Positions 12,202-55,880 of a stretch of 64,000 nucleotides of DNA are shown here, piece after piece (the stretch's first letter is position 1; each line of letters starts with the position of its first letter). Under the pieces are notes generated by a model, which had not been told where the DNA came from, searched no databases, and was given only the letters and a program-made list of their open reading frames with translations. The DNA is taken from sequence record OP744025; one strand, 5' to 3'. The translations under genes and the position numbers were made by a program. The stretch comes from Escherichia phage A5-4.

Positions 12202-14085
12202 ATGGTAATAGATAATACGTCTAACGCCTTCATCATACCAACCTTTCTTGACCAACTGCCAGTGCAGGAGGATACCCACCAAGTCAAACAGTGCAGCACC
12301 ACCATTCTGCTGATAAGCATTAAGCAATGAGTGTTTGGAACGAGTGTAGATCTTACGCCCATCCAGACCATAGATGAATCGCTTACCGTTAGCTTCCCAA
12401 AACTTCTCTAATGCTTCTTTACGACCTTTCAAGCCGATGTTGCTATCCCAGAATGCGTCGATTACTGCTTGGGCTTTCTCAAGACTGATACCAAGCATTG
12501 ATGCAATCTTCGCTGCCTGTGCCCCGTACATGATTCCGTATGTCACCCCTTTACCTTCGCCACGAGAAACCTTCTTCCCTGCTGCTTTGGTATATGCTTC
12601 TGCGTTTCGGGAGTGAGCATCTCCAGATTCCATGATACGAAGATAAGCACCGCCATCGAAATCATAAGCGCCCCATGCTGCGATCATGCCTTCCAAGTTT
12701 GAACCGTCGATACCTACCTGATATTTACCCTCAGAGGCTCTGAATAGTTCACGCATCTCTTTACCGAGAAGAACTTTCTCATCCGGCTTAGGTACGTTTG
12801 CTACGATCGTATGCTTACGACGACCTGTGTTAGTTATTCCACTATAACGGGCCGGAAGTTTACCGTCAACTCGTAGACGTGGATGGTTAAGCCATCCGGT
12901 ATCAACCTTCTCTTCTTTCAGCGGGTCAAGAACAGATCGTCGGTTACGTAAAGACAGCCATTTAACAATCTGTTTAGCCATTTCACCATCTACTCGCTCA
13001 AGGTTAGGGCAAAGACCTTGCTGATCCTTAAGTTGCGGGGATGTTGGCAATGCACGAGCTTTCTTACGGAAAAACTTGAACATCTTTTCTTTATCTGACC
13101 ACTGCTTAGGTGTGATCGCCAAGCTTTTCAGAATCAGATCACGATACTCCGTCTGATCCAAATCTTCAATGTATTGACGAACAATCAGATCAACCTCACT
13201 ATCAGGACGCTGTTTCTTGAACTGATCTTTAGTTGCATCCTTTGTACGCCAAATTGTTGGGACCCACCCTGCATCACGGATCAGGAACTTCTTAACGTCG
13301 TCCTGGTTACCAATACGCATCGGAATCATAATGTCCGGCATCTTTTGTTCTTTGATATCCATCAAAGCACGAGCCATATCTTCCGGCGGCAAAGGAACAA
13401 GTCCTTGCTGCTTAACGTTTTGTGCACGGATAAAATCACCCATTTTGGATTCATCCTCTACACCGTGCTCAACACAATACTTGATCGCGGCGGCAGTAAG
13501 AGATCCGTCAGCCTTAAACGGCTTACTTGGTGCACCTTTAAACTCCAAGGCTTCCCAATTGATATTATAACCTAACTTCTCTAACCATTTCCAACCTGTA
13601 CCGGAAAGAGATCCATCACCCTTGAAAGGTTTAGATGGGAATGTCGGTTGTGCTGATTTCGACATCTCTTTCTTCGGCAACTTAGGTTCAACCTCTAACT
13701 CAATGTCTGTCATCATCTTATCGATACGATCACGAAGCTTGAGTGCTTTTTCTTCATCAAATGAAACACCCTGAATTTCTTGCTCAATCATCAGGTAGTC
13801 AGTCAACATACCTCGACGCAGGGCATTCTTCCAGTTGATCATTTTATACTTCTTCTGATCTTTGTCTGTTTCATCCTTATACATGAAGCGTTTATCATCC
13901 GGCATAGATTCACAAGAGATCTCTTTCATCAGAGCATCCCATACCATTTCGTTGATAATTACGTCTTCAATAATACGATCGCAATACTTCCAAAGTGGAA
14001 GGCCACGCCAATCTTCGATCGCCACTTTCTGGTTAGCTACTCGCATACCCCAAGCTTCAAGCCCGTGTGGCCCTACAGGCTTCAT
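12202..14085 (-). CDS. DNA polymerase (family A, T7 gp5-like), polymerase part, exon 1
   Basis: HGLEAWGMRV matches T7 HALEAWGYRLG; Exo III-like YCDRIIEDV; motif B region SRGEGKGVTYGIMYGAQAAKI; reading frame ends ...RRIIYYH at the intron junction (track ORF 12196..14085). Confidence 0.8.
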
Positions 14086-20409: not shown

Positions 20410-21516
20410 TCAGAAAGGTGCGTCGTCGTCCCAATCATCCGGCTCTGTGTCCGGCACATCAGGAATATCACCTGTGGATTCAACGATACTTTGTTGTTCC
20501 CACGTAGGTTCTTCTGAAGGTTGTTCCATTTCTTCCATAACCTTCTTGATCTCTTCCTCTTGCTCACGCAGGAAGTTATCATCCGGCTCAGGAATATCTT
20601 CCTCTTTAATATCTGAACGAGTGAGATCACTGTTTTGTTCAGACAGAGGTTGAATCTCTGCTGCTTTAGGCTTAAAGTCTGGAGAACGATGATCATCTTC
20701 TGGATGAGCGGCATACCACTCACGAAGAGTTTCATAAGGACTCTCTAAGAAGCCCTCTGGCGGTTCCAGATAATCACCCGTGTCAATGTCATAGAACACA
20801 GGGAATTTACCAGCACGACCGTGTTTACGGTCATCCAGAATAACAAAGTAAGAAGTGTTACGTTGTTTCATCGGGAGTTCTGGATCTTTGTTACGTTCAA
20901 TACCCCACATGTAATAAGTGTTACGCATCATTGCACGGCTACCAGCAAACTGCGCTGACTGGACTTGACCACCAAATTCATGAGGCTTACCAGATTCAGG
21001 CTTGTTAAGGTGACAGAAGCAATAATAGGTAAAGCCAAGCTCTTTTGCCAGTTTGGAGATCTCATCAGAGAATCGTTCCAGTTCCTGGTTAGCTTCGGAA
21101 GCACTCATACCTTGCACAAGACGAGTGATTGGGTCAATAAAGATATCTTCACAACCTTCTACGATCACTGCGTGACGGATAGCACCTTTCAGTTCATCCC
21201 ATACTGCACGACCATAGTTGTTATAATAGATAACACTATCACCAACTTCATCAGTAGCCTTGATCAGTTCTTCTTGCTTAAAGTAGCCACGTTGACCTTC
21301 AAATACTTCATTACCCCAAATGTCACGGAAAGTTCCATCTTCTTGAGGAATCATTACCTTTTCTGCGTTAACAAAGTCTTTATGATAACGCTTACCTGCG
21401 ATCTTTTTACAGGTAATTTCGTTCTCTTCTTCAAACTTAAACACCGCAGCCTTTGACTTCTCAATACCTGTAATGTGTTCTACCATCTGGTTAAGAAGTT
21501 CAGACTTACCCATTTT
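20410..21516 (-). CDS. primase-helicase (T7 gp4-like), helicase domain, exon 2
   Basis: Begins within Walker A (..KMGKSELL); CFCHLNKPESGKPHEFGGQVQSAQFAGSRAMMRNTYYMWGIERN aligns with T7 gp4 [32 protein letters not shown]...IALERN; acidic C-terminus ...DDWDDDAPF. Exon start uncertain by a few nt. Confidence 0.75.
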   Translation of the reverse strand, partial: KMGKSELLNQMVEHITGIEKSKAAVFKFEEENEITCKKIAGKRYHKDFVNAEKVMIPQEDGTFRDIWGNEVFEGQRGYFKQEELIKATDEVGDSVIYYNNYGRAVWDELKGAIRHAVIVEGCEDIFIDPITRLVQGMSASEANQELERFSDEISKLAKELGFTYYCFCHLNKPESGKPHEFGGQVQSAQFAGSRAMMRNTYYMWGIERNKDPELPMKQRNTSYFVILDDRKHGRAGKFPVFYDIDTGDYLEPPEGFLESPYETLREWYAAHPEDDHRSPDFKPKAAEIQPLSEQNSDLTRSDIKEEDIPEPDDNFLREQEEEIKKVMEEMEQPSEEPTWEQQSIVESTGDIPDVPDTEPDDWDDDAPF

Positions 21517-24759: not shown

Positions 24760-26118
24760 TTACTGGTTATTGAAAATACTCGGGAACTTCTCGTGATAGA
24801 AGTCTACAACATCCTGATCAACGATGATATCTTTTACTCGCAGACGCTTCATCAGGCGAAGACCTTCTACGGATGTGGCACGAGATAGCATAACGTAGGC
24901 TTGCCCAGGTGTAAAAGTACCAAAACCAAGATCAATATTTACTTTACCCAAGGTAAGACCCTGCGCTTTGTGACCCGTGATCGCATAGCCTAACTTAAAT
25001 GGGTACTGGATATACTCACCGATAGATTTATCGACAAGAACAGTTTTTTCAACCATCTTCTTGATCGTCTTTTTGGTTCCGTCCGGCATATCAACTTCTT
25101 CCTCTTCAAGCATCATCTTTTTCTCAGGTACTTGAGCAACGTTGTTCCATGTTGCAGGGCCGATTGGGACCATCTTGCCATCGATATCTACAACAACAAA
25201 GGTTTTTGCGATACGACGAACAATGCCGACTGTACCGTTGACATAATCAGGCACTTTCTTCTTCTGATCATTGTCGTTAACAACAATCATTACTTTAAGA
25301 CCTTCCTTGAGAAAGAGTTTTTCATTAACTGGACGTTCAACAAACTCACCAGTAATACGGGCATTAAATTCATGCTGTTCAGCATTAATCTTTGCGTACT
25401 CTTTGTTGTTAATCTCTTCTGCCAGCTTGTTTGTGGTAGTTAAAGTTACTGCCCCGTCAAGTGGACGACCAAAGCAACGCTGGTTAAAGAAGTTAACGGC
25501 ATCAGGGATGTTTTTCCCGATACGAATATTGTTCAGGTGTTCTGCAAACACTGGATCACTTTGACGATGAACTTTAGGAAGATAAGCATAGGTCAGATTC
25601 AAAGATTCCCAAGTTTCACACCCAAAAGGAATTTCTTTCCCGTGCAGTTCACGGAACAAAGGAACTTCTTCTTTCTTAAGTACAGGCTTGATCTGGAAGC
25701 CGTCACCAAACATGATGATCTGGAGTCCACCAAAAGGCTTATCGGATTTACGATGGTGGCGAAGTTTCATATCGATTTCTTTCAGTTTGTCACTTCGAGT
25801 CATACCGATCTCATCGAACACGATACCATCGAGTGCATCAGATGCCATAAGCATAGCTGCCTTTTTAGATTTTGCTTTATAATCCTCGGAAGTTGTGACA
25901 CCAAAGGTTAAACCAAACGCTTTATGGGTAGTAACACCACGGATGTTTAATGATGCCACGCCTGTTGGACCAACAAACAGAAAACTATCAGCAAAGAAGT
26001 CACGCAGTGCTGCGATCATCATACTTTTACCACTACCACCAGGTCCGGTGATAAAAACGTTTTCCCCATTCATGATTGCTTGCATTGCCGCTTCGTTACC
26101 GATCACTGTCTTAGTCAT
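24760..26118 (-). CDS. SF1 DNA helicase (Dda/RecD/Pif1-like)
   Basis: 452 aa; Walker A ITGPGGSGKS, Walker B IVFDEIGM, later motifs YAITGHKAQGLT and AYVMLSRATS. Confidence 0.75.
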   Translation of the reverse strand: MTKTVIGNEAAMQAIMNGENVFITGPGGSGKSMMIAALRDFFADSFLFVGPTGVASLNIRGVTTHKAFGLTFGVTTSEDYKAKSKKAAMLMASDALDGIVFDEIGMTRSDKLKEIDMKLRHHRKSDKPFGGLQIIMFGDGFQIKPVLKKEEVPLFRELHGKEIPFGCETWESLNLTYAYLPKVHRQSDPVFAEHLNNIRIGKNIPDAVNFFNQRCFGRPLDGAVTLTTTNKLAEEINNKEYAKINAEQHEFNARITGEFVERPVNEKLFLKEGLKVMIVVNDNDQKKKVPDYVNGTVGIVRRIAKTFVVVDIDGKMVPIGPATWNNVAQVPEKKMMLEEEEVDMPDGTKKTIKKMVEKTVLVDKSIGEYIQYPFKLGYAITGHKAQGLTLGKVNIDLGFGTFTPGQAYVMLSRATSVEGLRLMKRLRVKDIIVDQDVVDFYHEKFPSIFNNQ

Positions 26119-33397: not shown

Positions 33398-33961
33398 ATG
33401 AGTCAAGATAAAGAGTTAGCCATTGCGATATCCGTAGCTGCTTCTGCCCATGTTGACCAAGTAGATAAAGGGGGGAATATCTATATTCTTCATCCTTTGC
33501 AGGTGATGCAAACATTGCAGCAAAAGGGAAGGGAAGATTTAATGGCAGCAGGAGTTTTGCATGATGTGATTGAAGATACTGAAATCACTATGGAACACCT
33601 CTTTAAAAAGGGGATTTCAGAAAGAACCTTAGTGATTGTCGATGCAGTGACAAAGAAACGTAAGCAATCTTCATCTGATTACCTAGAGGGGATTTTAGAG
33701 AGTGAGGGTGCTTGTCATGTTAAGCTTGCGGATCTTAAACACAACTTAGATATTCTGCGAACTTGTAGCACCACAGAAAAAGACTTGCAACGGGTCAGGA
33801 AGTATGTAACAATGCACTTGTTGATTACGGAGATGGTTGATTGGTATGAAAGTATCGGAAGGTATCTCGATTATTGTGATTCTTTTGCCTATTCTAGCTA
33901 TCTCGACGAACGTAAAGAATTTGTTCAGAAACTTATTAAAAAATGGAAGGAGTTTAAATGA
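33398..33961 (+). CDS. small alarmone hydrolase (SpoT/RelA-type HD-domain (p)ppGpp hydrolase-like)
   Basis: 187 aa; ILHPLQV, AAGVLHDVIEDT and VKLADLKHNL align with SpoT hydrolase motifs (ITHP, LLHDVIEDT, IKLADRTHNMRTL). Confidence 0.75.
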   Translation: MSQDKELAIAISVAASAHVDQVDKGGNIYILHPLQVMQTLQQKGREDLMAAGVLHDVIEDTEITMEHLFKKGISERTLVIVDAVTKKRKQSSSDYLEGILESEGACHVKLADLKHNLDILRTCSTTEKDLQRVRKYVTMHLLITEMVDWYESIGRYLDYCDSFAYSSYLDERKEFVQKLIKKWKEFK

Positions 33962-34491
33962 AAAAGGTATTGAGTATTGAGCCGTTCACAACAACATACT
34001 TTGACGATTTGGAACGTCATGGTGATTATGGGGTACAAGACGCTGATGGTTGGAAAGAATTCCCTGAAGAAACAAAAGGTGACATTACAAAGCTCGGTTG
34101 TAAGATCAATGGATCTGAACCAAAAGGTGTTTACACCATGTTTTCTTTCCTTGAAGCTATGAACCCAATGTACAAGGGAGATCGGCAATTTGGTTTTTCT
34201 TTTGCATCATTCCTTACTTGTAGCTGTGGTCATGGGGGTTGTGCAGGCTATCATGATAATGTGGTTATTCGACGTAAAAAGAATACCGTGATGGTCATGG
34301 GTAAAAAGGAAGATGGTTATGACGAAGGTGTTGTATTGACAGGTGAATCTGTTGTATACTTCGATAAAAAGCAGTGGGACGGTGTTCTAGAACACTACCT
34401 TAAACTCTTCAAAGAAAATCCTGATGGTGTTTTTGAAGATGCGGGTTTTATGTTTACTGGTCGTTGGGGGACTAAAAATTTTTCAAAATAA
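33958..34491 (+). CDS. hypothetical protein (ATGA-coupled to the alarmone hydrolase)
   Basis: 177 aa; CSCGHGGCAGYH Cys/His cluster; start overlaps the upstream stop. Confidence 0.55.
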   Translation: MKKVLSIEPFTTTYFDDLERHGDYGVQDADGWKEFPEETKGDITKLGCKINGSEPKGVYTMFSFLEAMNPMYKGDRQFGFSFASFLTCSCGHGGCAGYHDNVVIRRKKNTVMVMGKKEDGYDEGVVLTGESVVYFDKKQWDGVLEHYLKLFKENPDGVFEDAGFMFTGRWGTKNFSK

Positions 34492-34561
34492 TTTAAAAAC
34501 TTGTTGACTTAAGAAATAGAAAAGATATACTTATCACATCAAAAACAAGAGGAGATATAAA

Positions 34562-35791
34562 ATGCAAGCAACTTATCAACGTATGGACCAAACCATGTTC
34601 AAAAAACGTATCAGTGTTCGTGATATGGAATCACTGATTCGCCTAGGGGCTTCCATCGGAAAGACCGTATTCTTTTTTGGTGGTGCTGGTCTTGGTAAGT
34701 CTGAAAAAGTAAAACAGATCGCTGATTCCATGTTCCCACATCGTGTAGGTAATAACCTTTGTGATGTTCGTCTGTCGGATAAAGAGCCACAAGATATCGC
34801 AGGTATTCCGATTCCGATCTCTTATCCAGATCCGAAAACTGGTAAAGAAGTCACTCGTACCGTATATGCAGTTCCAAACTTTTGGCCTACTGATCCTGAT
34901 TGGGAAGGTATCGTGTTCTTGGATGAACTGCCAAATGCACCATTGGGCACTCAGCACTCTGCATATCAGGTTATTCTTGATCACGTTGCAGGTGAGCATA
35001 AGTTCCCGAAAGGTACTGTGTTTGTAGGTGCAGGTAACCGTGATACTGATGGAGCAGGGACTACTTCTATGCCTGGCCCATTGGTTAACCGTATGATCAT
35101 TGCAGAAGTTGATTATAATCTGGATGTGTGGATCGAAGACTATGCGATTCCGTTCCGTCTGCACCCGAACATTATTGGTTTCTTGAAGCAGTTTCCAGAG
35201 CATTTCTATACTGGTGACGTAGAAAACCGAAGTACTCCGGTTTATTCATCTCCTCGTCAATGGAAAACAGCATCTGACATTCTGTACAAGTATGATGCGG
35301 GTGAGATTAATGAATTTATCGCAGAGGTTGCTCTTGCAGGTACAGTTGGTGAAGGCCTGGAAGTACAGATCCTTGCTTATCATTTACGTGCTAAAGAACT
35401 TCCTCCGATTGAAGATATCTTTAGTGGTGCAGTTGAAGAACATAAACTTGATCGCAGTAAGAACGACCTTGTTTACGTCCTGGCACAAACTGGCCTTCGT
35501 CGCATGGAAGATGAGGTTATGGATAATGACATGACGGATGATAAGTTCCTTGAACGTGCAGGTAACTTCCTTACGTTCATGTACAATAACTATTATGCAA
35601 ACAACAAGGATACAATGATTGCTTTGATCTTGGGCGTGTTCCGTGGTCCAAACGATAAGCCATCTATCCTGACTGTTAACCCGAAACGTCAGAAAATGAT
35701 TCCGCTCATGCGTAAAAGTTGCCCGACTGTTTCTGCCGCAGTTATGGAATACATGACTCGCTATGGTCAACTGATTAAAGAATTCGAATAA
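34562..35791 (+). CDS. MoxR-like AAA+ ATPase (CobS-like)
   Basis: 409 aa; Walker A FFFGGAGLGKSE, Walker B IVFLDELPNAP, sensor-like VFVGAGNRD. Confidence 0.7.
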   Translation: MQATYQRMDQTMFKKRISVRDMESLIRLGASIGKTVFFFGGAGLGKSEKVKQIADSMFPHRVGNNLCDVRLSDKEPQDIAGIPIPISYPDPKTGKEVTRTVYAVPNFWPTDPDWEGIVFLDELPNAPLGTQHSAYQVILDHVAGEHKFPKGTVFVGAGNRDTDGAGTTSMPGPLVNRMIIAEVDYNLDVWIEDYAIPFRLHPNIIGFLKQFPEHFYTGDVENRSTPVYSSPRQWKTASDILYKYDAGEINEFIAEVALAGTVGEGLEVQILAYHLRAKELPPIEDIFSGAVEEHKLDRSKNDLVYVLAQTGLRRMEDEVMDNDMTDDKFLERAGNFLTFMYNNYYANNKDTMIALILGVFRGPNDKPSILTVNPKRQKMIPLMRKSCPTVSAAVMEYMTRYGQLIKEFE

Positions 35792-35795
35792 TCTC

Positions 35796-35824
35796 TTGAC
35801 AACGAAAAACAGTTAACTTAATAT
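35796..35824 (+). promoter_or_regulatory. sigma70-type promoter followed by a stem-loop
   Basis: TTGACA (35796-35801), 17-nt spacer, TAATAT (35819-35824); then imperfect hairpin 35827-35848 and T-run before the HNH gene. Confidence 0.5.
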
Positions 35825-35866
35825 AAGGGCATCTCGAAAGAGGTGTCCTTTTTTAATTTGGAGAAA

Positions 35867-36361
35867 ATGATGGATTTCATAAAAGAAGGATTTTCTTTCG
35901 ACCCCCTTGCAAAGTTTCTACTAAGGAGAAATGGAAGAGAAGTAGGGAATGTAGTAAAGAATCATAAAGGTTATGATAAAGACTATGTACGTGTAACATG
36001 GTCAAGGGAAAGGAAAAGAAAATCTGCGTATGCTCACAGGATCATTTGGGAATTGCATTATGGCAAGATACCTGATGGTTATTGTATAGACCACATAAAT
36101 GGAGATGGTTTGGATAACAGGATTGAAAACTTAAGATTGGCAACTAAGAGTCAGAATGGTCAAAACAGGAAAAACAACAAGAATAAAAAGGATGGTCTTC
36201 CTAAAGGTGTAGTTATGAATCATGGAAAATACACAGGAAGGGTCTATGTAAATGGAAAAAGGTTACAGAAAATTAGTTCCGACCTTGACGAAATAGTCAA
36301 TTGGTTGGAGAATAAACGTAAAGAAAATCACGGTGTGTTCATGAACAATGGAGAACAATAA
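35867..36361 (+). CDS. HNH homing endonuclease (free-standing)
   Basis: AYAHRIIWELHYGKIPDGYCIDHINGDGLDNRIENLRLATKSQN is an HNH signature; start set at ATG 35867 after GGAG; sits between the AAA+ and VWA genes, stop overlapping the VWA start. Confidence 0.7.
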   Translation: MMDFIKEGFSFDPLAKFLLRRNGREVGNVVKNHKGYDKDYVRVTWSRERKRKSAYAHRIIWELHYGKIPDGYCIDHINGDGLDNRIENLRLATKSQNGQNRKNNKNKKDGLPKGVVMNHGKYTGRVYVNGKRLQKISSDLDEIVNWLENKRKENHGVFMNNGEQ

Positions 36362-37899
36362 TGTCAAAAATTAGTCAAGAAGAAAAAGATATGATCGAAA
36401 TGCAAGTCTTCGAAGCTGAACGTATTATTGAAGCTGCAAGTCTTCAACTTATGCGCTTCAAAGCGTTCTACGGGGTGATGCTTTCGTCTATGCCTGTTAA
36501 AAAGGCGACGGAATGGTGTAGTACAATGGCGACTGATGGACGTAACCTGTATTACCATCCAGAGTTCGTTGCAGGTATGACAGAAGAACGTAAAAAATTG
36601 GTACTTGATCGACTTTCCAAATCTGAGAAAGATCCTAAAAAGCTGAAAGAGGGTATTGAGTTTATCAATGTCTTCTATCGTCGAAAGACTGCTCGTGAGC
36701 TTGCTCTTATTCTTGAGCATGAATGTGATCATGTGATCTCTGATCATGCTTCTCGTGGCAAGGGGTTTAATCACGAACTTTATAATATTGCTGCGGATCA
36801 TCGTATCAATACAACGGCGGTTCTTATTCACCAAAAGGGGGATGAGTTAGGTAAGGCATGGTTCCCTGCCGGAGAAAGAACAGTATTCGATAAGAATGCA
36901 GAATTTGGATTTATGGCCTGGTCTTACTGTGATTTCCGATTCAAAGATATGTATACTGAGCAGATCTATGAAATCCTGAATAAAGAGCAAGATGATAAAG
37001 AAAAATCCAAAGGGAAAGGTTCTGGTTCTGGAAGTGAAGAGGGTGATGGTGAAGAAGGTGGTCAAGGTCGTAAAGGTGTTGATCAGCACATGGATCAGAA
37101 TGGTGATCCAGAAGATTCAGAAGGTGATGGTATCGAAGATGCACTAGGAATCGACCGTAAAGCGAAGCCTAAGCAAACAGCAGAGGAACGCCAGTATAAC
37201 GATGGGGTTATGCGTCGAGCCATTGAGAATGCCGTACAGGCAGCAGGAAGCGGTGCACCGGAAGATGCTCGTCGTTTTGTAGAAGCGGCGGGTAAACCAA
37301 AGATTAATTATCTTCGTTTGTTGCGTAAAACTATTGAACGTCTGTTCAAAGATGATGTATCATATCGTCGTTTGTCACGCCGTAGTCACTCGTTAACTCG
37401 GACTCTTCGTGGCTCGGGTTACTTATCTGGACGACAGACGATTGGTTTACCCTCAAAGAATAAACAGAAGACTATTCGTGCAGGTGTCTTCTTCGACGTA
37501 TCTGGATCATTTAACGATGATCTGTTAAGACCAACAATGCGTGAGATTCGTGGATTGTGTAATCTTTACGATGAGTTTGAAGTTACAATGGCTTGCTGGT
37601 CAACAAAGGTTGGTAACATTGAAACGTATACGAAGAAGAATGTGAATGAGATTGCTAACTACAAGATCAAGACCACATTTGGTACGGATGTTTCTTGTGT
37701 GTTCGAGGCATTAGATGAAATGAAAGACCCTATGGATCAGATCATCATCTACACTGACGGTTACTTTGCTGATGTATCCCAAAAGAAAGATTGGGCCAAA
37801 AAGTATGGTAAGAATGTTCTTTGGATCATCCTGGGTCGTGGGTCTTCGTTCACCCCGCCTTTTGGCAAGGCAATTGATTTTGACAAGTATCTTAAATAA
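36361..37899 (+). CDS. VWA-domain protein with N-terminal HExxH metallopeptidase-like region (CobT-like partner of the AAA+ ATPase)
   Basis: 512 aa; HECDH (HExxH) near residue 120; Gly/Glu/Asp-rich linker; C-terminal VFFDVSGSF...IIIYTDGYF consistent with a VWA/MIDAS fold. Confidence 0.6.
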   Translation: MSKISQEEKDMIEMQVFEAERIIEAASLQLMRFKAFYGVMLSSMPVKKATEWCSTMATDGRNLYYHPEFVAGMTEERKKLVLDRLSKSEKDPKKLKEGIEFINVFYRRKTARELALILEHECDHVISDHASRGKGFNHELYNIAADHRINTTAVLIHQKGDELGKAWFPAGERTVFDKNAEFGFMAWSYCDFRFKDMYTEQIYEILNKEQDDKEKSKGKGSGSGSEEGDGEEGGQGRKGVDQHMDQNGDPEDSEGDGIEDALGIDRKAKPKQTAEERQYNDGVMRRAIENAVQAAGSGAPEDARRFVEAAGKPKINYLRLLRKTIERLFKDDVSYRRLSRRSHSLTRTLRGSGYLSGRQTIGLPSKNKQKTIRAGVFFDVSGSFNDDLLRPTMREIRGLCNLYDEFEVTMACWSTKVGNIETYTKKNVNEIANYKIKTTFGTDVSCVFEALDEMKDPMDQIIIYTDGYFADVSQKKDWAKKYGKNVLWIILGRGSSFTPPFGKAIDFDKYLK

Positions 37900-37908
37900 G
37901 GAGGATCT

Positions 37909-38280
37909 TTGAGCGAGTATACTTACAAGTTGTCAGTCGGTAGGCGTGGAGTGGTTATGACTATCAACATGATTAATGAAAGTGCGGAGGCTGTGAAATG
38001 GTGGGCCTCCACCTTTAACGGGAAAGGTTTTACTTTATCTCGTCATAAGGTTGGATCAGGAAAGCCAATAGATCTTGTCAAGGAGGACACTTTCTTGTAT
38101 CCTGATCGTATTGCTGATGAAGATATTGATTTCCTATCTGCTACGGTTGGTAGTTTGTTGGATGAGGAGCCAGACATTGTAAGGTTACTCTCTTTACTTA
38201 CAGCAATGTGGTCAGCAGGTCATGATGAGGAAAGTATGCATACGATGGTAAGGAATACGTTGAGACGTTGGTCTAAGTAA
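37909..38280 (+). CDS. hypothetical protein
   Basis: 123 aa; TTG start 8 nt after AGGAGG. Confidence 0.45.
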   Translation: MSEYTYKLSVGRRGVVMTINMINESAEAVKWWASTFNGKGFTLSRHKVGSGKPIDLVKEDTFLYPDRIADEDIDFLSATVGSLLDEEPDIVRLLSLLTAMWSAGHDEESMHTMVRNTLRRWSK

Positions 38281-38600
38281 CAACATTTCCTTTATGCCCA
38301 TTTAGGCATACAATACTATATTAGATGATAAACCCCTCAACCTGCTCGGTTGCTTCGACGGGGTTTATATATCTATTAAAAAATTAACCACACTCACATT
38401 CGTTCGGTACTTAATTTTTTAAGTCACCACAAAATTGTGTTGACACCACAATGAAACAGATGTAGAGTTAACAAGAGAAGGAAAGTCAATTGGATAAGTT
38501 TTACATATACTGTCTAACATTGGGATTGATCTTCATGATTGTTGGATCAGTGGGTAAAGTTTTACTCAATAGTTTTGGAATTTATTAAGAGGAGATCGTA

Positions 38601-38843
38601 ATGAGAGTACGTCAACATCGTGGTACATTGATCGAAAGTTTGAAAACTGTTAAACAGATTGAAGGTACAAAACAAGCTCTTGTGGATCATATCAACAAAG
38701 AGTTAGGTAAACCGTTTAACTTCTCTGTTGATTCGATCAGTATTGTGGAAAAAGGAGTTGATGAGCGTATCAACTGGAACAACCATCTGATCCTGATTGA
38801 TGGATTTGGTGTATTTGGTTATTGTGATCAACATCCTGTTTAA
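38601..38843 (+). CDS. hypothetical protein
   Basis: 80 aa; GAGGAG RBS upstream. Confidence 0.5.
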   Translation: MRVRQHRGTLIESLKTVKQIEGTKQALVDHINKELGKPFNFSVDSISIVEKGVDERINWNNHLILIDGFGVFGYCDQHPV

Positions 38844-38963
38844 GAGGTGGTTATGGGTATTAAATGGTGGTTGTTTGTAGTTCCTGCAAATGATAATGCA
38901 GGTGGTGATGGTAAACGTGCAGTCGCACAAACCTATGTCTATGGTCGTCATTAAGGGGTTATT

Positions 38964-39371
38964 ATGGATGCTTTTTTGAGTATGGTGTTTGCACTAACAG
39001 TGGTTGATTGGGTATTTATCGGTATCTATTTACTGTGTATTCCTTTTGTGATCTGGTTTTACATTGACCTTTTGGCAGGTACTGGCAAGGTAAGTGGGAT
39101 GGATTACTTCATGTTTATTGTTGTGATCCTGATGGGACCTTTAGCTTTGTTGTCTTTCCTTATTGCAAACATTGTGGTAAGAGGGGGCGCTATCAAACAA
39201 GCCATTCTTTTAAAGGTGAGTGGAACTGATATCGGTAAGAAGATCATTGTCTGGAACATTACACGTAAGCTTAAGAAGACTGATACCAAATGGGTTAATC
39301 CTTTAGAGCGAGCCGTTCAGAAACGTCACAAAGTCTTAATAGGGAGAAAACATGGGAAATGCAATCCGTAA
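38964..39371 (+). CDS. hypothetical membrane protein
   Basis: 135 aa with three hydrophobic segments. Confidence 0.5.
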   Translation: MDAFLSMVFALTVVDWVFIGIYLLCIPFVIWFYIDLLAGTGKVSGMDYFMFIVVILMGPLALLSFLIANIVVRGGAIKQAILLKVSGTDIGKKIIVWNITRKLKKTDTKWVNPLERAVQKRHKVLIGRKHGKCNP

Positions 39372-39512
39372 AATCAAGTGGAAGTTTTGGGAATACGCGC
39401 TGGTTGTTGCTGGATATCTTTTCGGATACGGTCATGAAGTGTACTATGGTGTGAAGCATAATCGAAACATGGCGTACTTCGCGTGGAAGTTTCCAGAGCG
39501 TAAGGAAAAGAA

Positions 39513-40034
39513 ATGAAAGTCACAGAAAGCTTAGTTAAAAAGCTTCGAATAGAAGAACTCCAGGAAGAAAGGCTCGATCCTATCGAGGTTATCATTGAGA
39601 ACTACGAGAATGGTAGAGGTAAGCTTATAGTCACCTCAAGTGGTAAGTCTTGGGTAGGCCAATGGAATGCAATGGGAGGTAGTGTAGAGTCCTTCATCCA
39701 ACGGGTAGATAATGACTACCTTATCGGATGTATGGGGCGAGCGCCTAAATTCATTGAAGACAAGGATGAAGATCCTGTCTTCATTAAGAAGATGATCTTG
39801 AAGCAACGCCGGACCGATTCAATAACTAAAGGGCAGGCGAGATGGGCTTGGGATTATACGGAGACGTTTGCCCCTGACCGTGATCACATCCTTCATGGGG
39901 TTCCTTTTGCGCTTCAACCCCTGAGGGAGTTAGAAGAACCTTGGTATCTGGACTGGCCCACAAAAATCAATACGGATTATGTACACCAAAGTAAGATCCT
40001 GGATGTTGTTCGTAAAGTCATAAAGCCAAATTAA
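39513..40034 (+). CDS. hypothetical protein
   Basis: 173 aa ORF. Confidence 0.5.
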   Translation: MKVTESLVKKLRIEELQEERLDPIEVIIENYENGRGKLIVTSSGKSWVGQWNAMGGSVESFIQRVDNDYLIGCMGRAPKFIEDKDEDPVFIKKMILKQRRTDSITKGQARWAWDYTETFAPDRDHILHGVPFALQPLRELEEPWYLDWPTKINTDYVHQSKILDVVRKVIKPN

Positions 40035-40108
40035 TCACAAAAAGGGGTTGACGGGAGTCGCCCCTTAAGTTAGACTTCAGTTATCGAAACAAAGAGGGGA
40101 AACACATA

Positions 40109-40324
40109 ATGACTAAGATTGTAACTTACGTGTTCGAAGGTGATTCTGTACCCAGTGAATTTTTTGAAGATGTTTACAGCAATGATCGTGGAGTGGAACC
40201 TTTAAAGGTTTTACTTGTTGATGTTACCAACTACGGTGATGATATCGAAGTCACAGTGCAAGGAACAACCCGAGAAGTCATTGATGAACGTATGAAGTAT
40301 TGGACACTGTTGCTGAAAAAATAA
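40109..40324 (+). CDS. hypothetical protein
   Basis: 71 aa ORF with GAGGGG RBS. Confidence 0.45.
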   Translation: MTKIVTYVFEGDSVPSEFFEDVYSNDRGVEPLKVLLVDVTNYGDDIEVTVQGTTREVIDERMKYWTLLLKK

Positions 40325-40356
40325 AAAAGTTATTTTAAATTACATAGGAGAAAGAA

Positions 40357-40980
40357 ATGGCTATCTATGCAAAACTGAAAGAAAGTAAGAAAAGTTATTT
40401 TATTTCAATGGACCCATCTAACCGACGTATGATTGAAAATCATGGTGATCGATTCATTGTTCGACCTTCTGAGAATAACGATTCTTACTTACGTCCGGTG
40501 GGTCCACGTATTGAGGGTCAGTTCTTAACATCCCGAGATATCGAAGAGTATTTCACATTCTTCCCTAAATGGTCAGCAGAGTCAGCAGAATACATCGTTA
40601 ACCTAGCGGTTCCACGGGGTCAAGTGGCTATCGACAATCAGTATCTGTTAGGGGATGGAAGTGTTAGTGATTACAAAATTAAAACAAGTCATCCGAATAT
40701 GTGGCGACTGTATAACTCTGATAACCCTGACGATTACGTTATGCTCAACCAAAGTAATTTAGAGAAATACTTCACTTTACAGGAAGATAGCTTAAAGAAA
40801 GCATTGGCTAAGTTTGATAATTACACTCCTGCACCTGTAGAAAAAGAACAGGAAGTTGTAGATACGTATGTTTTTGAAGTGAACATTAAGCGCACAGTCA
40901 GAGTTAAGGATGCGGAAGTCACAGAGGACAATCTGGATCAATTCATTGCACAGCTTACTAAACTGGTTAAAGGAGAATAA
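40357..40980 (+). CDS. hypothetical protein
   Basis: 207 aa ORF with GGAGA RBS. Confidence 0.5.
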   Translation: MAIYAKLKESKKSYFISMDPSNRRMIENHGDRFIVRPSENNDSYLRPVGPRIEGQFLTSRDIEEYFTFFPKWSAESAEYIVNLAVPRGQVAIDNQYLLGDGSVSDYKIKTSHPNMWRLYNSDNPDDYVMLNQSNLEKYFTLQEDSLKKALAKFDNYTPAPVEKEQEVVDTYVFEVNIKRTVRVKDAEVTEDNLDQFIAQLTKLVKGE

Positions 40981-40983
40981 AAG

Positions 40984-41298
40984 ATGATTATCGATGAAAG
41001 AACGCAAGTAGTTATTGACAAGACTTTCAGTGTACGTAAAAGTATCATTGCAGACATTAGTCTTGAGCGTATCACCGAGGAGGGTATTGATACTTCTGTA
41101 AACTATCCCTTGGTGGAAGAAGACTTCCTACGTAAAATTATGAAGCAGGGTTTTACCGACTACGTTCGGGTAGAAACGAACAAAGACATGTGGTTAGTTT
41201 TTACATTAACTGCGGACACTGATCACGAACAAGAATTCAATGTGGCATTGGCCTGGATTCTTAAATACTGTGATGACAATGATCTGGAGGTGATGTAA
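40984..41298 (+). CDS. hypothetical protein
   Basis: 104 aa ORF. Confidence 0.45.
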   Translation: MIIDERTQVVIDKTFSVRKSIIADISLERITEEGIDTSVNYPLVEEDFLRKIMKQGFTDYVRVETNKDMWLVFTLTADTDHEQEFNVALAWILKYCDDNDLEVM

Positions 41299-41525
41299 TG
41301 CACAAGCTTCCAAAGAACTTTCGATTCTATCGTGATCTGAAATTAAAGTCTGTACTGTTTGTCGAGAATTTAGAGTTAGAGGAGTTTTATGGTTTTGAAT
41401 GGTACAAAGGGGATATGGGAGAGATGAACTTAGAGAATGTTCTCAAATTTTGGGGAAATGATGATGGGGAAGGATACAGCCCCACACCAAAACACAAGCT
41501 TTCCCTTGTTGAGATTAGACAGTAA
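41298..41525 (+). CDS. hypothetical protein
   Basis: 75 aa ORF, overlapping start/stop. Confidence 0.45.
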   Translation: MHKLPKNFRFYRDLKLKSVLFVENLELEEFYGFEWYKGDMGEMNLENVLKFWGNDDGEGYSPTPKHKLSLVEIRQ

Positions 41526-41630
41526 CAAAAGAAGGGGCCTAAACAGGCCCCTGTAAACATAAACAAGCACAAGACGATAAATAACCTTACCAAAGATAAA
41601 AGGTCCTCACAAACGCATACAGGAGCTTAC

Positions 41631-42449
41631 ATGGCCTACCGTAAATTTGACCCACTGATCATTTATGAAGTTGTCCCAATGAGCGTCACCAATCCTCATG
41701 GTTTGCAATCACCTACTCCACTTGACCATAAGACAATGATCAGGAATGCAGAGTACACCTTAAGAGATCTTGAGAACGAAGAGATTGAAAGTGCTGTGCA
41801 TGGATTGAAAGACCTGATCCGTGAACTTGATACGGATGATTCTGTTCAAGAATATATTGAAAAGTCAGAGGCGCTAATCACGAAGTTTCATGAGTACCGC
41901 ACTAAGGTATCGCGTATTCTTGATGAAGCTTTTGATCCTTCATCAAAAGACCCGATAAATGATGACAAGGCAATAGCCTTACTCAGCCAAATAGCTGACG
42001 CTACTGACAGCATGGACCCTGGTTTTGTAAGGGCTGATCATACCTGTGTAGATCAGTTTCCTTTAGCCTATCTTAAATCCAAAAAAGCATTCGGTAGTCT
42101 GGCTTTTGTCTGGGAGTATGAGAAAGATTCCCTTACTCGTTACATCAATCGGGTAGGTAAGAAAGATACTTCAGTTACGTTAAATATCTTTTGTGATGGT
42201 TCCTTGATGGTCCATAACAACTGGACAAAAGAGAGCATCCTCTTTGGTAAAGAAAGAGATCAGAAATTTAAACTGGTAAACTATATCCGTTTCGCAACAG
42301 AGGATAGTAAAATGGGTAAGTCATTTAAAGAGGAGGACTTTAAAACTTTCTTTGAGGATTGGCTTTCCCCAACAGAAGAAGAGATCCAACTCTTCAAGGC
42401 TGTAAATGGGGATGTTTCGTTCGACCTCTACACACTTTTTAATGAGTGA
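41631..42449 (+). CDS. hypothetical protein
   Basis: 272 aa ORF; last gene before the iteron region. Confidence 0.5.
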   Translation: MAYRKFDPLIIYEVVPMSVTNPHGLQSPTPLDHKTMIRNAEYTLRDLENEEIESAVHGLKDLIRELDTDDSVQEYIEKSEALITKFHEYRTKVSRILDEAFDPSSKDPINDDKAIALLSQIADATDSMDPGFVRADHTCVDQFPLAYLKSKKAFGSLAFVWEYEKDSLTRYINRVGKKDTSVTLNIFCDGSLMVHNNWTKESILFGKERDQKFKLVNYIRFATEDSKMGKSFKEEDFKTFFEDWLSPTEEEIQLFKAVNGDVSFDLYTLFNE

Positions 42450-42746
42450 TATTTGTTCGCTGAAACAAATTCAGATTTCAGATCCAAAATCTATTTGAGA
42501 TATTTCCCTGTGATATTTGTTTCATGGGGAATTTTCAGATTTCAATTTGAAATTCTATTTGAGATAAATTTAAGACTCCTGCCACCGTGCCCCATCCATA
42601 CTGTGTCATTCCTGCATACCTGCACCACTAGATCAACTTAGTTGATGCCCCTCTTACAGACTCACCCTCCAGATTCAATACGTTACTGCTCCACTATACA
42701 TACGATACAAAGCAAACATACGACACTCATGACCAGAATAATTTGA

Positions 42747-42912
42747 GAACTTGAGAGGTTTTTCATTTTTGAGATCGTAACCTGAAAACTGTGCACGAGA
42801 ACTTGAGAGGTTTTTCGATACAGGGATTAGGAACTTGATAGCTTTTTCATTTTTGAGTTTGCATTTGAACTTGAGAACTTGAGCTACAGGCCAGATACTT
42901 GAGAGGTTTTTC
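42747..42912. repeat. iteron-like direct repeats
   Basis: Five copies of GAACTTGAGAGGTTTTTC-like units at 42747-42764, 42799-42816, 42831-42848, 42867-42884 (partial) and 42895-42912, inside an 800-bp ORF-free region. Confidence 0.7.
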
Positions 42913-43269
42913 AAATTTCAGTTTCATTTCAAAATTGAAAAATTTTTCATAAGCATAAAAGTATAGAGGTTGTCAAGGTCTTTGATAAGAAATTTTTCAG
43001 GGGGTGAGAATTATTCTCATTTGCAAAATAGCGGGCAGGGGTGGTGATTGCCTCGTGAAACCGTCCTCATCACCGTGAATATATAATAGCACCGTTTTTG
43101 ATTCGAAAGCAACAACATTTTAAAAATATTTTTCGGTAAATTTTAGGCGAGCTACCAGCGATTATAGCTATCGATGCCCTTCGGCTATCATCACCCAAGT
43201 TTAACGCCGTTGGTAGGCGATTGTTTTCCTATGTAGGCATTATGGCCCCTGGCGGGGCCGTTGTCAACA

Positions 43270-43551
43270 TTATTTTTTATCTTCTTGCCAGGTAAGAACG
43301 CCTAACCAAAAATACACGTCGCCCTTAGCGTTCGGCGGTATCTTGCTTTCTTTCCCGCCAGCACACGCCCAAAGGTAACCATCGGTAAACGTATCAAGGT
43401 AGTCCATATCTTCCACCTTTCGATCCGCCAGGTTAAGGATAGTATTAACGTCTAAGCCTGTTGCGCTTGCTACCTGGTAGACCGTGCCACCTTGCCAGCC
43501 TAACGAGTGCATAAGATGCAAAGTAGTAGTAGTAGTGGTGATGGTAGTCAT
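43270..43551 (-). CDS. hypothetical protein
   Basis: 93 aa; poly-Thr N-terminus MTTITTTTTTL; isolated leftward gene. Confidence 0.4.
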   Translation of the reverse strand: MTTITTTTTTLHLMHSLGWQGGTVYQVASATGLDVNTILNLADRKVEDMDYLDTFTDGYLWACAGGKESKIPPNAKGDVYFWLGVLTWQEDKK

Positions 43552-43748
43552 AGTATCGCCCTTTCTTCTGTTGTGCGCCCTGGTTGGCGCGGTAAAAAGA
43601 CTATAAATGATCTTCCTTTATATGGCAAGGAAAAAGAAAATTAAAAAAGATTGAAAATAATGTTGACGTGGTGAATCTGGTAGCGTAGTATTCATCTCAT
43701 CGAACGGCGACATGCCAACAAGTAAACAAATAAAAGGGCAACAACAAA

Positions 43749-43934
43749 ATGAATAAAAGAATTACAAACGTAAATCCTGGCGAACGTTTCCAACATGAGG
43801 GGCATTTGCACACTGTAGTAAGCAACAAAGAGCATACTGTAAGAGTAAATAGAAATATCTTGCAACTTCGCGATCGTTTTGGTATCGTACAGACTTACAC
43901 TTTCGAAGCAAATAAAACAGTTAAAACTTTCTGA
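43749..43934 (+). CDS. hypothetical small protein
   Basis: 61 aa; promoter TTGACG-N17-TAGTAT upstream. Confidence 0.45.
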   Translation: MNKRITNVNPGERFQHEGHLHTVVSNKEHTVRVNRNILQLRDRFGIVQTYTFEANKTVKTF

Positions 43935-43945
43935 GGATTTTTAAA

Positions 43946-44281
43946 ATGGCACTAGTCACTAAGTATTTCATTGAAGGCCAGCAAGCGGCGCAACAAGGTT
44001 ACAGCCGTGTTACTCGTTACAAGAAAGAAGAAAACAAGATTGAATTTTTCAAGGGTTACGATAGTGTAAACCGTGATGCAATGGTCCTACGCTTCGAATC
44101 CGATCCAGTGGGCAAGCCTGTTACCTCTTACCAGGCATCACCGCAGATTGTTTATGTTGGTACTGTTAAAGAATGTAACGACAAGTTAATCACTTTGAAG
44201 CAGGCCGATCGTGCGGGTTACTTTGTTGTTTACACTGCTGACGGTAAGCCTTACCAGTACGAAAGCAAATATTTTAAATAA
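43946..44281 (+). CDS. hypothetical protein
   Basis: 111 aa; GAGGA RBS. Confidence 0.5.
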   Translation: MALVTKYFIEGQQAAQQGYSRVTRYKKEENKIEFFKGYDSVNRDAMVLRFESDPVGKPVTSYQASPQIVYVGTVKECNDKLITLKQADRAGYFVVYTADGKPYQYESKYFK

Positions 44282-55407: not shown

Positions 55408-55418
55408 GTTCGACAAAA

Positions 55419-55446
55419 GGGCTTGACTTGTTCAGCCCTTTTTTGC
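55419..55446 (+). terminator. rho-independent terminator
   Basis: Hairpin gggcttgacttgttcagccc followed by ttttttg. Confidence 0.6.
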
Positions 55447-55619
55447 TATTCTTATCAAACGGGCGGCACCTGGGAACAGGGGGGAGGTAATCACTGGACG
55501 ACTCCGCTATATAGTGATAGTAAATAGCTATCAATAATCTCCAAAAATAAAATAAAACCTATCGAGTCTTTACAATTCTTTCTATTGACACAACAACCGC
55601 ATTACAGTATTATTTATCT

Positions 55620-55880
55620 CGTAGGGCAGCGAAGCAGTGATGTAAAGTAGTTACTCTATGATGTAAGTTCTGAGAAGTCGAATCCGATAAAGTATCAGAA
55701 AGTTTCTAAGTTTTCGAATCGTCCAGATGAAAAAGGCTGGCAAGTGTTGAGAAAGGGCACGTTGAGTAAGTCCTGAACAGGGGCGCTCCTAGACACCTTC
55801 TACTGAGATTGCGATCGAAGTGTTAAACTGTGAGAAACGATAAAGAGTACCAGGAAAGAAAGAAGTAAAAGAAGTGAAAA
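55620..55880 (+). ncRNA. candidate promoter-driven non-coding transcript
   Basis: Promoter TTGACA (55585-55590) + TATTAT (55608-55613) is followed by about 260 nt with no ORF longer than a few codons, up to the next promoter (TTGACA 55886). Every other cassette in the array sits directly in front of an ORF. Confidence 0.25.

Follow-up and report, generated by a model that had tools for sequence, protein, structure and literature searches.

The window analysed here, a stretch of 64,000 nucleotides from Escherichia phage A5-4 (sequence record OP744025), contains a non-coding gap of 820 bp at positions 42450-43269, and within this gap lies an array of direct repeats. The array is very probably a functional protein-binding cis-element, and neither a chance repeat nor a gene. 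It is best explained, on the comparison of related sequences, as a syntenic and ancestral element of the rV5-like (Vequintavirinae) and phi92-like (Stephanstirmvirinae) phages, where it would form the core of a composite cis-acting control region. We tentatively read it, at somewhat less than an even chance, as a replication origin, i.e. an assembly site bound by a phage protein, which would be a hybrid of the iteron and the transcription-activated types. A preliminary description of this DNA had reported an ~800-bp gap free of open reading frames (ORFs) and had called it a candidate origin or regulatory site. The gap itself holds, at 820 bp, and the proposal that the array is of the protein-binding kind has been borne out by the uniqueness of the repeats, their retention in congeners and the presence of equivalent syntenic arrays in relatives. 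A functional array is thus supported, and an origin is one of its possible roles beside a regulatory or a packaging one.

The core repeat of the array, ACTTGAGAGGTTTTTC (box A), occurs exactly at 42749, 42801 and 42897 and as a copy with two mismatches at 42833, so that the start-to-start spacings are 52, 32 and 64 bp. Half-sites with the sequence AACTTGAG are found at 42740, 42868 and 42876. The four full copies and the three half-sites are all on the plus strand and are confined to this gap within the 64 kb. When up to three mismatches are allowed, the 16-mer has six matches in 64 kb, four of them in the gap, and none of 100 shuffled sequences (0/100) reaches six. The hexamer TTGAGA occurs eight times in the gap against 0.18 expected, and TTGAG is found ten times on the plus strand between 42495 and 42899 but not once on the minus strand within 42300-43400. 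The preliminary description had counted five iteron-like repeats; four full copies are real, but the "fifth copy" is a pair of half-sites at 42866-42884. The larger repeated unit that it reported, TTTTTCATTTTTGAG, does occur twice, at 42759 and 42843, although its TTGAG part is not kept in four congeners. The box A spacings of 52, 32 and 64 bp correspond to about five, three and six helical turns, which would place the copies on one face of the helix.

The box A copies of the window are organized into three longer units and one extra copy, all on the plus strand. In iteron unit 1, AATTTGAGAACTTGAGAGGTTTTTCATTTTTGAGATCGTAACC (42740-42784), box A is followed by a T-tract and by box B (AGATCGTAAC); its homologues are the units found in SSBI34, Certrevirus, Ro1 and PVP-SE1. 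The extra box A, GAGAACTTGAGAGGTTTTTC (42797-42816), is located 52 bp past unit 1 and is specific to the genus, since it is present in all five congeners and missing from the three-unit arrays of other genera. Iteron unit 2, AGGAACTTGATAGCTTTTTCATTTTTGAGTTTGC, is followed by the two half-sites GAACTTGAGAACTTGAGC and together with them occupies 42829-42884. Its two box A mismatches occur together in this phage alone: one of the two is shared by A7_1, and box A reads as a perfect ACTTGAGAGGTTTTTC in the remaining congeners. The box A of unit 3, AGATACTTGAGAGGTTTTTC, is at 42893-42912, and the distance from unit 1 to unit 3 is 148 bp. The array of the window contains one GATC only. The iteron units have also been considered as sigma-70 promoters, a possibility that was rejected because a single site matches in 9 of 12 positions and the hexamers change from genus to genus.

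The source phage belongs to Septuagintavirus, an rV5-like coliphage genus of the Vequintavirinae, with A7_1, UPEC06, A73, W70 and LTH01 as congeners. The genus has been named recently (PMC11370258), in a paper where repeats, the origin and non-coding regions go unmentioned. Region 42000-44000 of the window is 99.8% identical to A7_1 and 91-95% identical to UPEC06, A73 and W70, and LTH01 is 97% identical over the part of this query that its record covers. All five congeners can be aligned over the entire gap. Absence of the repeats from relatives with conserved flanks, which the preliminary description had named as the finding that would speak against it, was checked, and the array is intact in all five. 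The fraction of variable columns within the genus is 9.3% in the array, 6.8% in the direct repeats at the left end of the gap (the lowest value in the gap), 11.4% in an AT-rich tract and 16.1% in a C-rich block, the most variable part of the gap outside the cassette. These values are similar to the 2-14% of the neighbouring genes, suggesting that the non-coding DNA is about as constrained as the coding DNA.

Beyond the genus, a comparable gap of ~790-1100 bp has been found at the same place in CR3, P7_Pc, KaOmega, phiTE, SSBI34, Ro1 and PVP-SE1. In those seven phages the gap is downstream of a fast-evolving protein of 270-280 amino acids (aa), and in rV5 and phi92 the equivalent gap is located behind a different upstream gene. 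The gap of each relative, covering Certrevirus, Seunavirus, Mydovirus, an Erwinia phage, SSBI34, rV5 and phi92, contains three long direct repeats, at one place per record. The successive units are spaced by 78 and 63 bp in CR3, P7_Pc, KaOmega and phiTE, by 74 and 67 bp in Ro1, by 75 and 67 bp in PVP-SE1, by 77 and 65 bp in SSBI34, by 67 and 75 bp in phi92, by 74 and 71 bp in pEp_SNUABM_01 (pEp01), by 65 and 74 bp in rV5, and by 84 and 64 bp in the window. Single spacings therefore range from 63 to 84 bp, and the first and third units are 139-148 bp apart in every lineage examined. At the edges of this syntenic gap, HNH homing endonuclease genes are inserted in Ro1 and PVP-SE1. Homing endonuclease genes typically target conserved, indispensable sequence.

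The units of the different lineages are homologous and are formed by a lineage-specific box A, a T-tract, ~8 nt and box B, (A/G)ATCGTATTC (ATCGTAT). The SSBI34 unit, AAATTTGAGAACCGGAGCACTTTTTTAAATTTGAGATCGTATTC, bridges the unit of the window and the Certrevirus unit, GGGTCTCGATCGGTTTTTCGTTTTGCCGATCGTATTCTC. Across the group, box A is of the TCTCGATCG, the ACTTGAGAGG or the phi92 type. Among the coliphages, rV5 has GTACTCGATCT, Septuagintavirus has GAACTTGAGAGG and phi92 has an unrelated sequence, and the Erwinia phage carries the box A of the window, ACTTGAGAGGTTTTTC. The presence of three box A sequences in three lineages that all infect E. coli suggests that the protein binding box A would be encoded by the phage and not by the host. 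An alignment of nine lineages shows a fixed order of elements: the GATATTTG repeats, a variable spacer, the array, the AT-rich tract with GAAAAATTTTTC palindromes, the AATGAGAATnATTCTCATT palindromes, a conserved block AATAGCGGGCA...TATAAT, and a cassette of ~120 bp (module 2). In the literature searched, no description was found of this array, of this combination of elements or of a ~142-bp three-unit composite, and no origin, iteron or transcript map was found for this group of phages. In the rV5 genome paper, skew analysis gave only orientation switches, and the map shows a grey "non-coding" box (PMC3606486).

The only ORF within the array (42675-42914, minus strand) would encode 79 aa from a TTG start. 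The repeats are reflected in its translation, in which KNLSS and LKNEK recur, as expected from the earlier proposal that this ORF is generated by the repeats. The ORF is annotated as the coding sequence (CDS) of a hypothetical protein in A7_1, A73, W70 and LTH01. It has no Pfam or PHROG match, it is broken into two ORFs in UPEC06, and no conserved ORF is found at this place in other genera. The 79-aa ORF has been rejected as a real gene on account of its repeat-mirroring translation, its lack of a family, its split in UPEC06 and its lack of conservation.

Several further elements of the gap, located inside the coordinates of the preliminary description, had been missed by it, namely a second repeat pair, a C-rich block, a palindrome and a conserved promoter with a leader cassette. 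The repeat pair forms a left module of two 57-nt direct repeats on the plus strand (42446-42502 and 42510-42566), which start with GTGATATTTG, end with TATTTGAGATA and are 75% identical. The first of them overlaps the stop codon of the upstream gene. The left module is 74-77% identical to Certrevirus DNA, and two to four copies of GATATTTG occupy the corresponding place in CR3, KaOmega, phiTE, SSBI34, Ro1, PVP-SE1 and rV5. The left module is followed by a C-rich, G-poor spacer (42567-42740), the plus strand of which has 21 G and 57 C. Its skew of -0.46 falls in the lowest 0.3% of 170-nt windows across the 64 kb, and a leftward transcript across this block would be a G-rich RNA. A strong bias is likewise seen in rV5 (-0.39) and a weaker one in phiTE and pEp01, but Ro1 and phi92 have none, so the C-rich block is lineage-specific.

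To the right of the array is the AT-rich tract (42913-43000, ~75% A+T), which contains the palindrome TGAAAAATTTTTCA (42936-42949) and a second one, AAATTTTTCA (42990-42999). Per 40 bp, the duplex stability of this tract amounts to -44 to -47 kcal, compared to a mean of -52 (standard deviation 3.6) across the window, i.e. the tract is less stable by about two standard deviations, and it could serve as an element for unwinding or bending. In Ro1 and PVP-SE1, each unit ends with GAAAAAATTTTT.

The AT-rich tract is followed by the palindrome TGAGAATTATTCTCA (43005-43019), present here as a single copy and with the 7-1-7 geometry of a Fur box. The Fur box consensus, GATAATGATAATCATTATC, is a 19-mer with a 7-1-7 inverted repeat. 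The palindrome of the window matches it at 14 of 19 positions, which is unremarkable because eight sites in the 64 kb reach at least 14. Palindromes of this kind adjoin the array in all rV5-like and phi92-like lineages, and the relatives have two to five copies, often 29 bp apart. In phiTE, phi92, Ro1 and SSBI34, clustered sites match at 15-16 of 19 positions; in the background of the window, a single site reaches 15 and no site reaches 16. T5-like phages also carry AATGAGAATnATTCTCATT palindromes, with 76-79% identity over ~80 nt, in their untranslated Repeat Region 3. Outside the window, the loci recorded for the palindromes are L009 2990-3108, L010 2403-2519, L015 2201-2320 and L077 392-560. 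The occurrence of these palindromes in unrelated families of enterobacterial phages suggests that a host factor may recognize them.

The T5 Repeat Region 3 is untranslated, is located in the terminal repeat, has paired DnaA boxes and has been proposed to act as an injection stop signal (Davison, bioRxiv 10.1101/866236). Like the gap of the window, it is a large non-coding region of repeats and palindromes that is conserved in its family above many neighbouring ORFs, with HNH genes inserting nearby. The order of a C-rich block, direct repeats, AAAAATTTTT and AATGAGAATnATTCTCATT palindromes is also shared; in the T5-like phages the order continues after the palindromes with the paired DnaA boxes. 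On the other hand, no DnaA box pairs are present in the gap of the window, the direct-repeat sequences are unrelated, and rV5-like genomes are circularly permuted with no reported two-step injection.

The palindrome adjoins sub-module 1 (43020-43152, plus strand), in which AATAGCGGGCA is followed by a stem-forming sequence and then by TATAAT (43082-43087). An nhmmer profile of the palindrome, sub-module 1 and module 2 matches 42998-43269 with an E value of 1e-57 and also matches every related locus examined. A blastn search with the CR3 version shows that 457 phage records carry part of the region, rV5 included; the loci of relatives were gathered as well by a pattern scan of IMG/VR with an nhmmer filter. 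In five lineages, sub-module 1 contains TGTGTATAA, a single consensus DnaA box (TTATACACA on the other strand), where the window has GTGAATATATAAT; the DnaA-box-like loci are L009 3158, L014 2711, L015 2371, L011 2437 and L012 2373. In four other phages, an inverted second copy of sub-module 1, comprising the palindrome and the AGCGGGCA stem block, has been observed ~7 kb away (L060 4308-4435, L072 4973-5107, L028 1172-1297, L067 9802-9959). L060 is the one locus checked for genes, and there the inverted copy is located at the distal end of the cluster of small early genes. The nhmmer profile finds no inverted copy of sub-module 1 in this window.

Module 2 (43153-43269, minus strand) consists of a leftward sigma-70-type promoter and a structured leader of ~95 nt. 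The promoter has a -35 hexamer TTGACA at 43267-43262, a GC-rich spacer of 17 nt and a -10 hexamer CATAAT at 43244-43239, and it matches the consensus in 11 of 12 positions. The hexamers are kept in 19/19 copies across all lineages (9-11 of 12, with spacers of 17-18). Hexamers that stay constant while the spacer and the downstream sequence vary are the signature of a working promoter, which would fire leftward into the gap.

The leader on the minus strand includes a hairpin (43173-43189) of 3-4 bp, a one-base bulge, 3 bp and a tetraloop. Six unrelated stem sequences take this one shape, and the minus-strand fold is the stabler one in 13 of 14 variants. A possible H-type pseudoknot at the 5' end would be formed by CGCC/GGCG (43205-43208 with 43216-43219) and CCAA/TTGG (43195-43198 with 43210-43213), also on the minus strand. 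In variant B of the module, CCAA...TTGG becomes CCCC...GGGG, and the interleaved CGCC...GGCG is invariant. A structured leader RNA is probable from these compensatory changes alone; the minimum free energy z-scores of module 2, from -1.5 to +2, are not significant against shuffled sequences, and the leader has no Rfam match. Variant A is found in this phage, A7_1, Ro1 (copy 1), pEp01 and one metagenomic contig, and variant B in the other congeners, CR3, PVP-SE1, phi92 and others. Ro1 has both variants, and they flank an HNH endonuclease gene (L011 2501-2626 and 3250-3371), so that copy 2 would be the promoter and leader of that gene. P7_Pc has two copies of module 2, of which the first is apparently variant A (L013 2444-2715 and 2784-2910).

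We infer from these elements that a phage protein would bind in the gap, that the DNA would open there and that replication would start. In the proposed mechanism, several copies of a sequence-specific protein encoded by the phage would bind box A and box B of the three units. The bound sites are all in one orientation, with four box A copies here, and the nucleoprotein complex would cover ~140-150 bp. The complex would then distort or open the adjoining AT-rich tract (42913-43000). Leftward transcription from the promoter at 43267-43239 would pass through the structured leader, enter the AT-rich tract and further reach the block that gives a G-rich RNA. Such transcription would activate or prime DNA synthesis by a T7-like replisome. 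The replication genes of the window are all on the minus strand and encode Pol A (12196-14085), a DnaB-like helicase, or primase-helicase (20410-21513), and a PIF1 helicase (24760-26118); with Pol A and a DnaB-like primase-helicase the replisome is T7-like, and it is encoded 10-30 kb to the left of the gap.

The reading as an origin is favoured because the array is unique, has one orientation, places lineage-specific sequences on a fixed scaffold, and is accompanied by an AT-rich tract and by a promoter aimed at it. It is also favoured because the replisome is T7-like, there is no other candidate and the replication genes are in the same window half. Further points in its favour are the placing of the box A copies of the window on one face of the helix, the variability of the array within the genus, no higher than that of coding DNA, the 5-6 GATC within 141 bp that the units of several genera contain, and the homing endonuclease genes bordering the gap in Ro1 and PVP-SE1, if these indeed mark indispensable sequence. 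Lambda ori, with four O-protein iterons and an AT tract, and T4 oriE, with iterons and RepEB, likewise have unique direct repeats of one orientation beside an AT tract. Their repeat sequences diverge among related phages while the layout is kept, and transcription runs toward the site. Unlike these origins, the gap has three composite units, 63-84 bp apart and spanning 139-148 bp, and is a non-coding gap, not an initiator gene. The T7 primary origin, T4 oriF and oriG, and ColE1 resemble the gap in having a host-type promoter directed toward an AT tract and then toward a block giving G-rich RNA, and a T7-like replisome is again involved. However, those origins need no iteron array, and the block giving G-rich RNA is limited here to some lineages. 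Iteron arrays, operator palindromes and promoter-leader cassettes are known kinds of elements, and it is the three-unit architecture that departs from classical iterons.

Several observations weigh against an origin. Classical iterons are spaced by 19-23 bp, about two helical turns, and the spacings of 32-84 bp here and of 63-78 bp in other genera are unlike these; the distances of 63-84 bp between units are about three times as wide. With spacings such as 67 and 78 bp, other genera do not keep the helical phasing of the window. The instability of the AT-rich tract is only moderate, the tract being outside the 15 least stable sites of the window, and the gap of the window contains neither DnaA boxes (TTWTNCACA) nor IHF consensus sites. 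The neighbouring palindromes are shared with the T5 Repeat Region 3, a region not regarded as an origin. The GC skew has its minimum at ~33.3 kb, tracks gene orientation and shows no switch at the gap; however, skew is uninformative on the origin because in these phages it follows gene orientation and transcription.

A further point of this kind is that no initiator candidate has been found among the flanking and nearby proteins, which show no match to a Rep, O or helix-turn-helix (HTH) family; an initiator could be encoded elsewhere. The 272-aa protein encoded directly upstream of the gap (41631-42449, plus strand) is 97-99.6% identical within the genus but only ~20% between genera, where it keeps the C-terminal motif F..TFF.DW..PTEEEI.LF. 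It has no Pfam or NCBIfam match, its PHROG matches are solely families of no assigned function, and even a profile search gives only nine homologues. It is ~22% identical to Certrevirus proteins and has no likeness in the Erwinia phage that shares ACTTGAGAGGTTTTTC. This protein has been rejected as the initiator, as it belongs to no family, its AlphaFold model is unusable (predicted local distance difference test, pLDDT, 35) and its similarity does not track the box A type.

The 93-aa protein on the other side of the gap (43270-43551, minus strand) has an all-helical AlphaFold model of five helices (pLDDT 90), with no significant PDB match and no match to a DNA-binding fold. Its gene has 36% variable columns within the genus and yet is 75% identical to phi92 gp224; in its sequence pattern it behaves as a mobile cassette. 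The other neighbours are only an HD domain protein, an HNH endonuclease and a DUF2201 metallopeptidase-like protein, and no local protein tracks the box A type.

The regulatory alternative of the preliminary description is still alive because operator-like palindromes and promoters are part of the region. According to this alternative, which we regard as possible but doubtful, the gap would be a hub for the control of transcription and of host factors, in which the array, the GATATTTG repeats and the palindromes would serve as operators or enhancers. Bound by regulators of the phage and by proteins of the host (Fur may be one, on the palindromes), these sites would set the timing of the promoters that border the early gene block, or they would titrate host factors, and the gap would be the rV5-like counterpart of the T5 Repeat Region 3. 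This agrees with the location of the gap immediately upstream of ~15 kb of small, early-type genes on the plus strand, with a promoter that is kept in all lineages next to further promoter-like sites, and with operator-type palindromes adjoining the array (one here, two to five in relatives). The palindromes of the T5-like phages stand in the same order, after the direct repeats TGTCGGATTYGCACA and a C-rich block. The palindromes of relatives reach 15-16 of 19 positions of the Fur consensus, and no site in the window reaches 16. In addition, the inverted copies of sub-module 1 in four phages resemble a regulatory cassette at the far end of the early cluster. On the other hand, most array units are without acceptable -35/-10 pairs, the 9-of-12 site being the one in the array of the window. 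A fixed three-unit geometry of 139-148 bp with lineage-specific sequence would be unusual for an operator, the palindrome of the window is a weak Fur match (14/19), and no regulator gene was found among the proteins scanned. Control of this kind would account at least as well as an origin for the promoters, for the duplication of sub-module 1 and for the palindromes, and less well for the fixed three-unit geometry. The two roles are not exclusive, since the origins of lambda, T4 and T7 combine promoters and binding sites.

An origin has also been weighed against a headful packaging (pac) site and against a transcribed array. At a pac site, which we consider improbable here, the small terminase would oligomerize on the boxes as at the pac sites of P1 or SPP1, and each packaging series would have its first cut nearby. 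The pac site of P1 is 162 bp long and has Dam-regulated hexamer repeats. The arrays of Certrevirus, Ro1 and PVP-SE1, with 5-6 GATC boxes within ~141 bp, recall it, and the likeness extends to ~140-160 bp of repeated short boxes, containing GATC in several genera, in a headful phage. Known pac sites are located in or beside the small-terminase gene; the gap, unlike the P1 pac, is not adjacent to terminase genes, with no terminase-like gene adjoining it among the ORFs scanned, and GATC is not conserved in this genus, the array of the window having a single one. A pac site must exist in these phages because the genomes of rV5 and phiTE are circularly permuted and terminally redundant (PMC3606486; PMC3475682) and phiTE is a generalised transducer (PMC3475682). 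Three database records start inside the region or <100 bp from it: LTH01 at ~43153, exactly the boundary of sub-module 1 and module 2 (L002/L006), RUS_R7 (L007) inside iteron unit 3, with an 80-bp "attL" annotated at its start, and phi1_175008 (H114) ~85 bp upstream of unit 1. These starts could be packaging ends or assembly breaks at repeats; three among several hundred records are near chance, and assemblers often break at repeats. It is very unlikely that the array acts as a transcribed RNA, e.g. as a decoy like the phiTE pseudo-ToxI, or encodes the 79-aa protein. The related phiTE does use a non-coding RNA containing repeats against host defence (PMC3475682), the conserved leftward promoters could transcribe the array, and GenBank records annotate the CDS. 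However, the phiTE pseudo-ToxI is at 106,714-106,772, outside the syntenic gap (PMC3475682), and the units of the array are irregularly spaced and not tandem, whereas the ToxI type has tandem repeats of ~36 nt. Rfam gives nothing above noise for the region, and the ORF is broken in UPEC06, without homologues and unconserved in other genera.

A broader proposal combines several of these elements. The gap would then be both the origin and a master switch of the rV5/phi92 supergroup, made of the ~142-bp array, a promoter-pseudoknot RNA cassette and host Fur boxes shared with T5; we consider this combination unlikely.

From a divergence at ~33.3 kb, a plus-strand block extends over 33398-42449 and is followed by the gap, by the 93-aa gene on the minus strand and by ~15 kb of small plus-strand genes. 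The gap is thus bordered by a plus-strand gene ending at 42449 and a minus-strand gene starting at 43270. The preliminary description of these neighbours as convergent is literally correct, but the minus-strand gene is a lone 93-aa cassette between two co-directional plus-strand blocks. ARAGORN finds no tRNA or tmRNA, and Rfam gives zero matches in the window at the gathering threshold and only noise in 42400-43700 at E values up to 10. In the plus-strand block, an HNH homing endonuclease gene (35867-36361) has been observed between the DUF2201 gene and a putative AAA-ATPase gene, a label that comes solely from synteny with phi92 gp221.

Two other large gaps have been observed in the window. 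A second ORF-free gap of ~740 bp (58523-59264) is located where plus- and minus-strand gene blocks converge, and its plus strand is G-rich. Its direct repeats are two copies of ACTCTGTGGACAAT at a distance of 21 bp, two copies of AACCAAAATGGTTTA at a distance of 29 bp and several of GTGACTC, and it contains two GATATTTG motifs at ~59093-59120. A third gap of ~745 bp (55408-56153), defined on a rough ORF map and with a possible unlisted ORF from ~55961, contains the promoter-like unit TTGACAC..N..TATTATnTATCTyGTAGGGCA twice, at ~55586-55628 and 55888-55931.

Phages of the rV5-like and phi92-like types form a large group and are frequently isolated when candidates for phage therapy or biocontrol are sought. 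What was an unexplained "non-coding box" in these genomes is now a set of defined, conserved elements with coordinates, each of which can be mutated or cloned, and it provides the first concrete, testable candidate for the replication origin of these phages. If the array is indeed the origin, it would have a non-classical iteron architecture and would offer a handle for engineering, such as conditional replication or plasmid-borne origins. If the palindromes are real binding sites, a host factor would be exploited by two unrelated families of virulent phages, which would bear on the disputed function of the T5 Repeat Region 3. If the broader proposal of an origin and master switch were true, unrelated virulent coliphages would couple replication or early transcription to the iron regulator of the host, or would titrate that regulator, and the control module would have a homologue in the T5 Repeat Region 3, which would not (only) be an injection stop signal.

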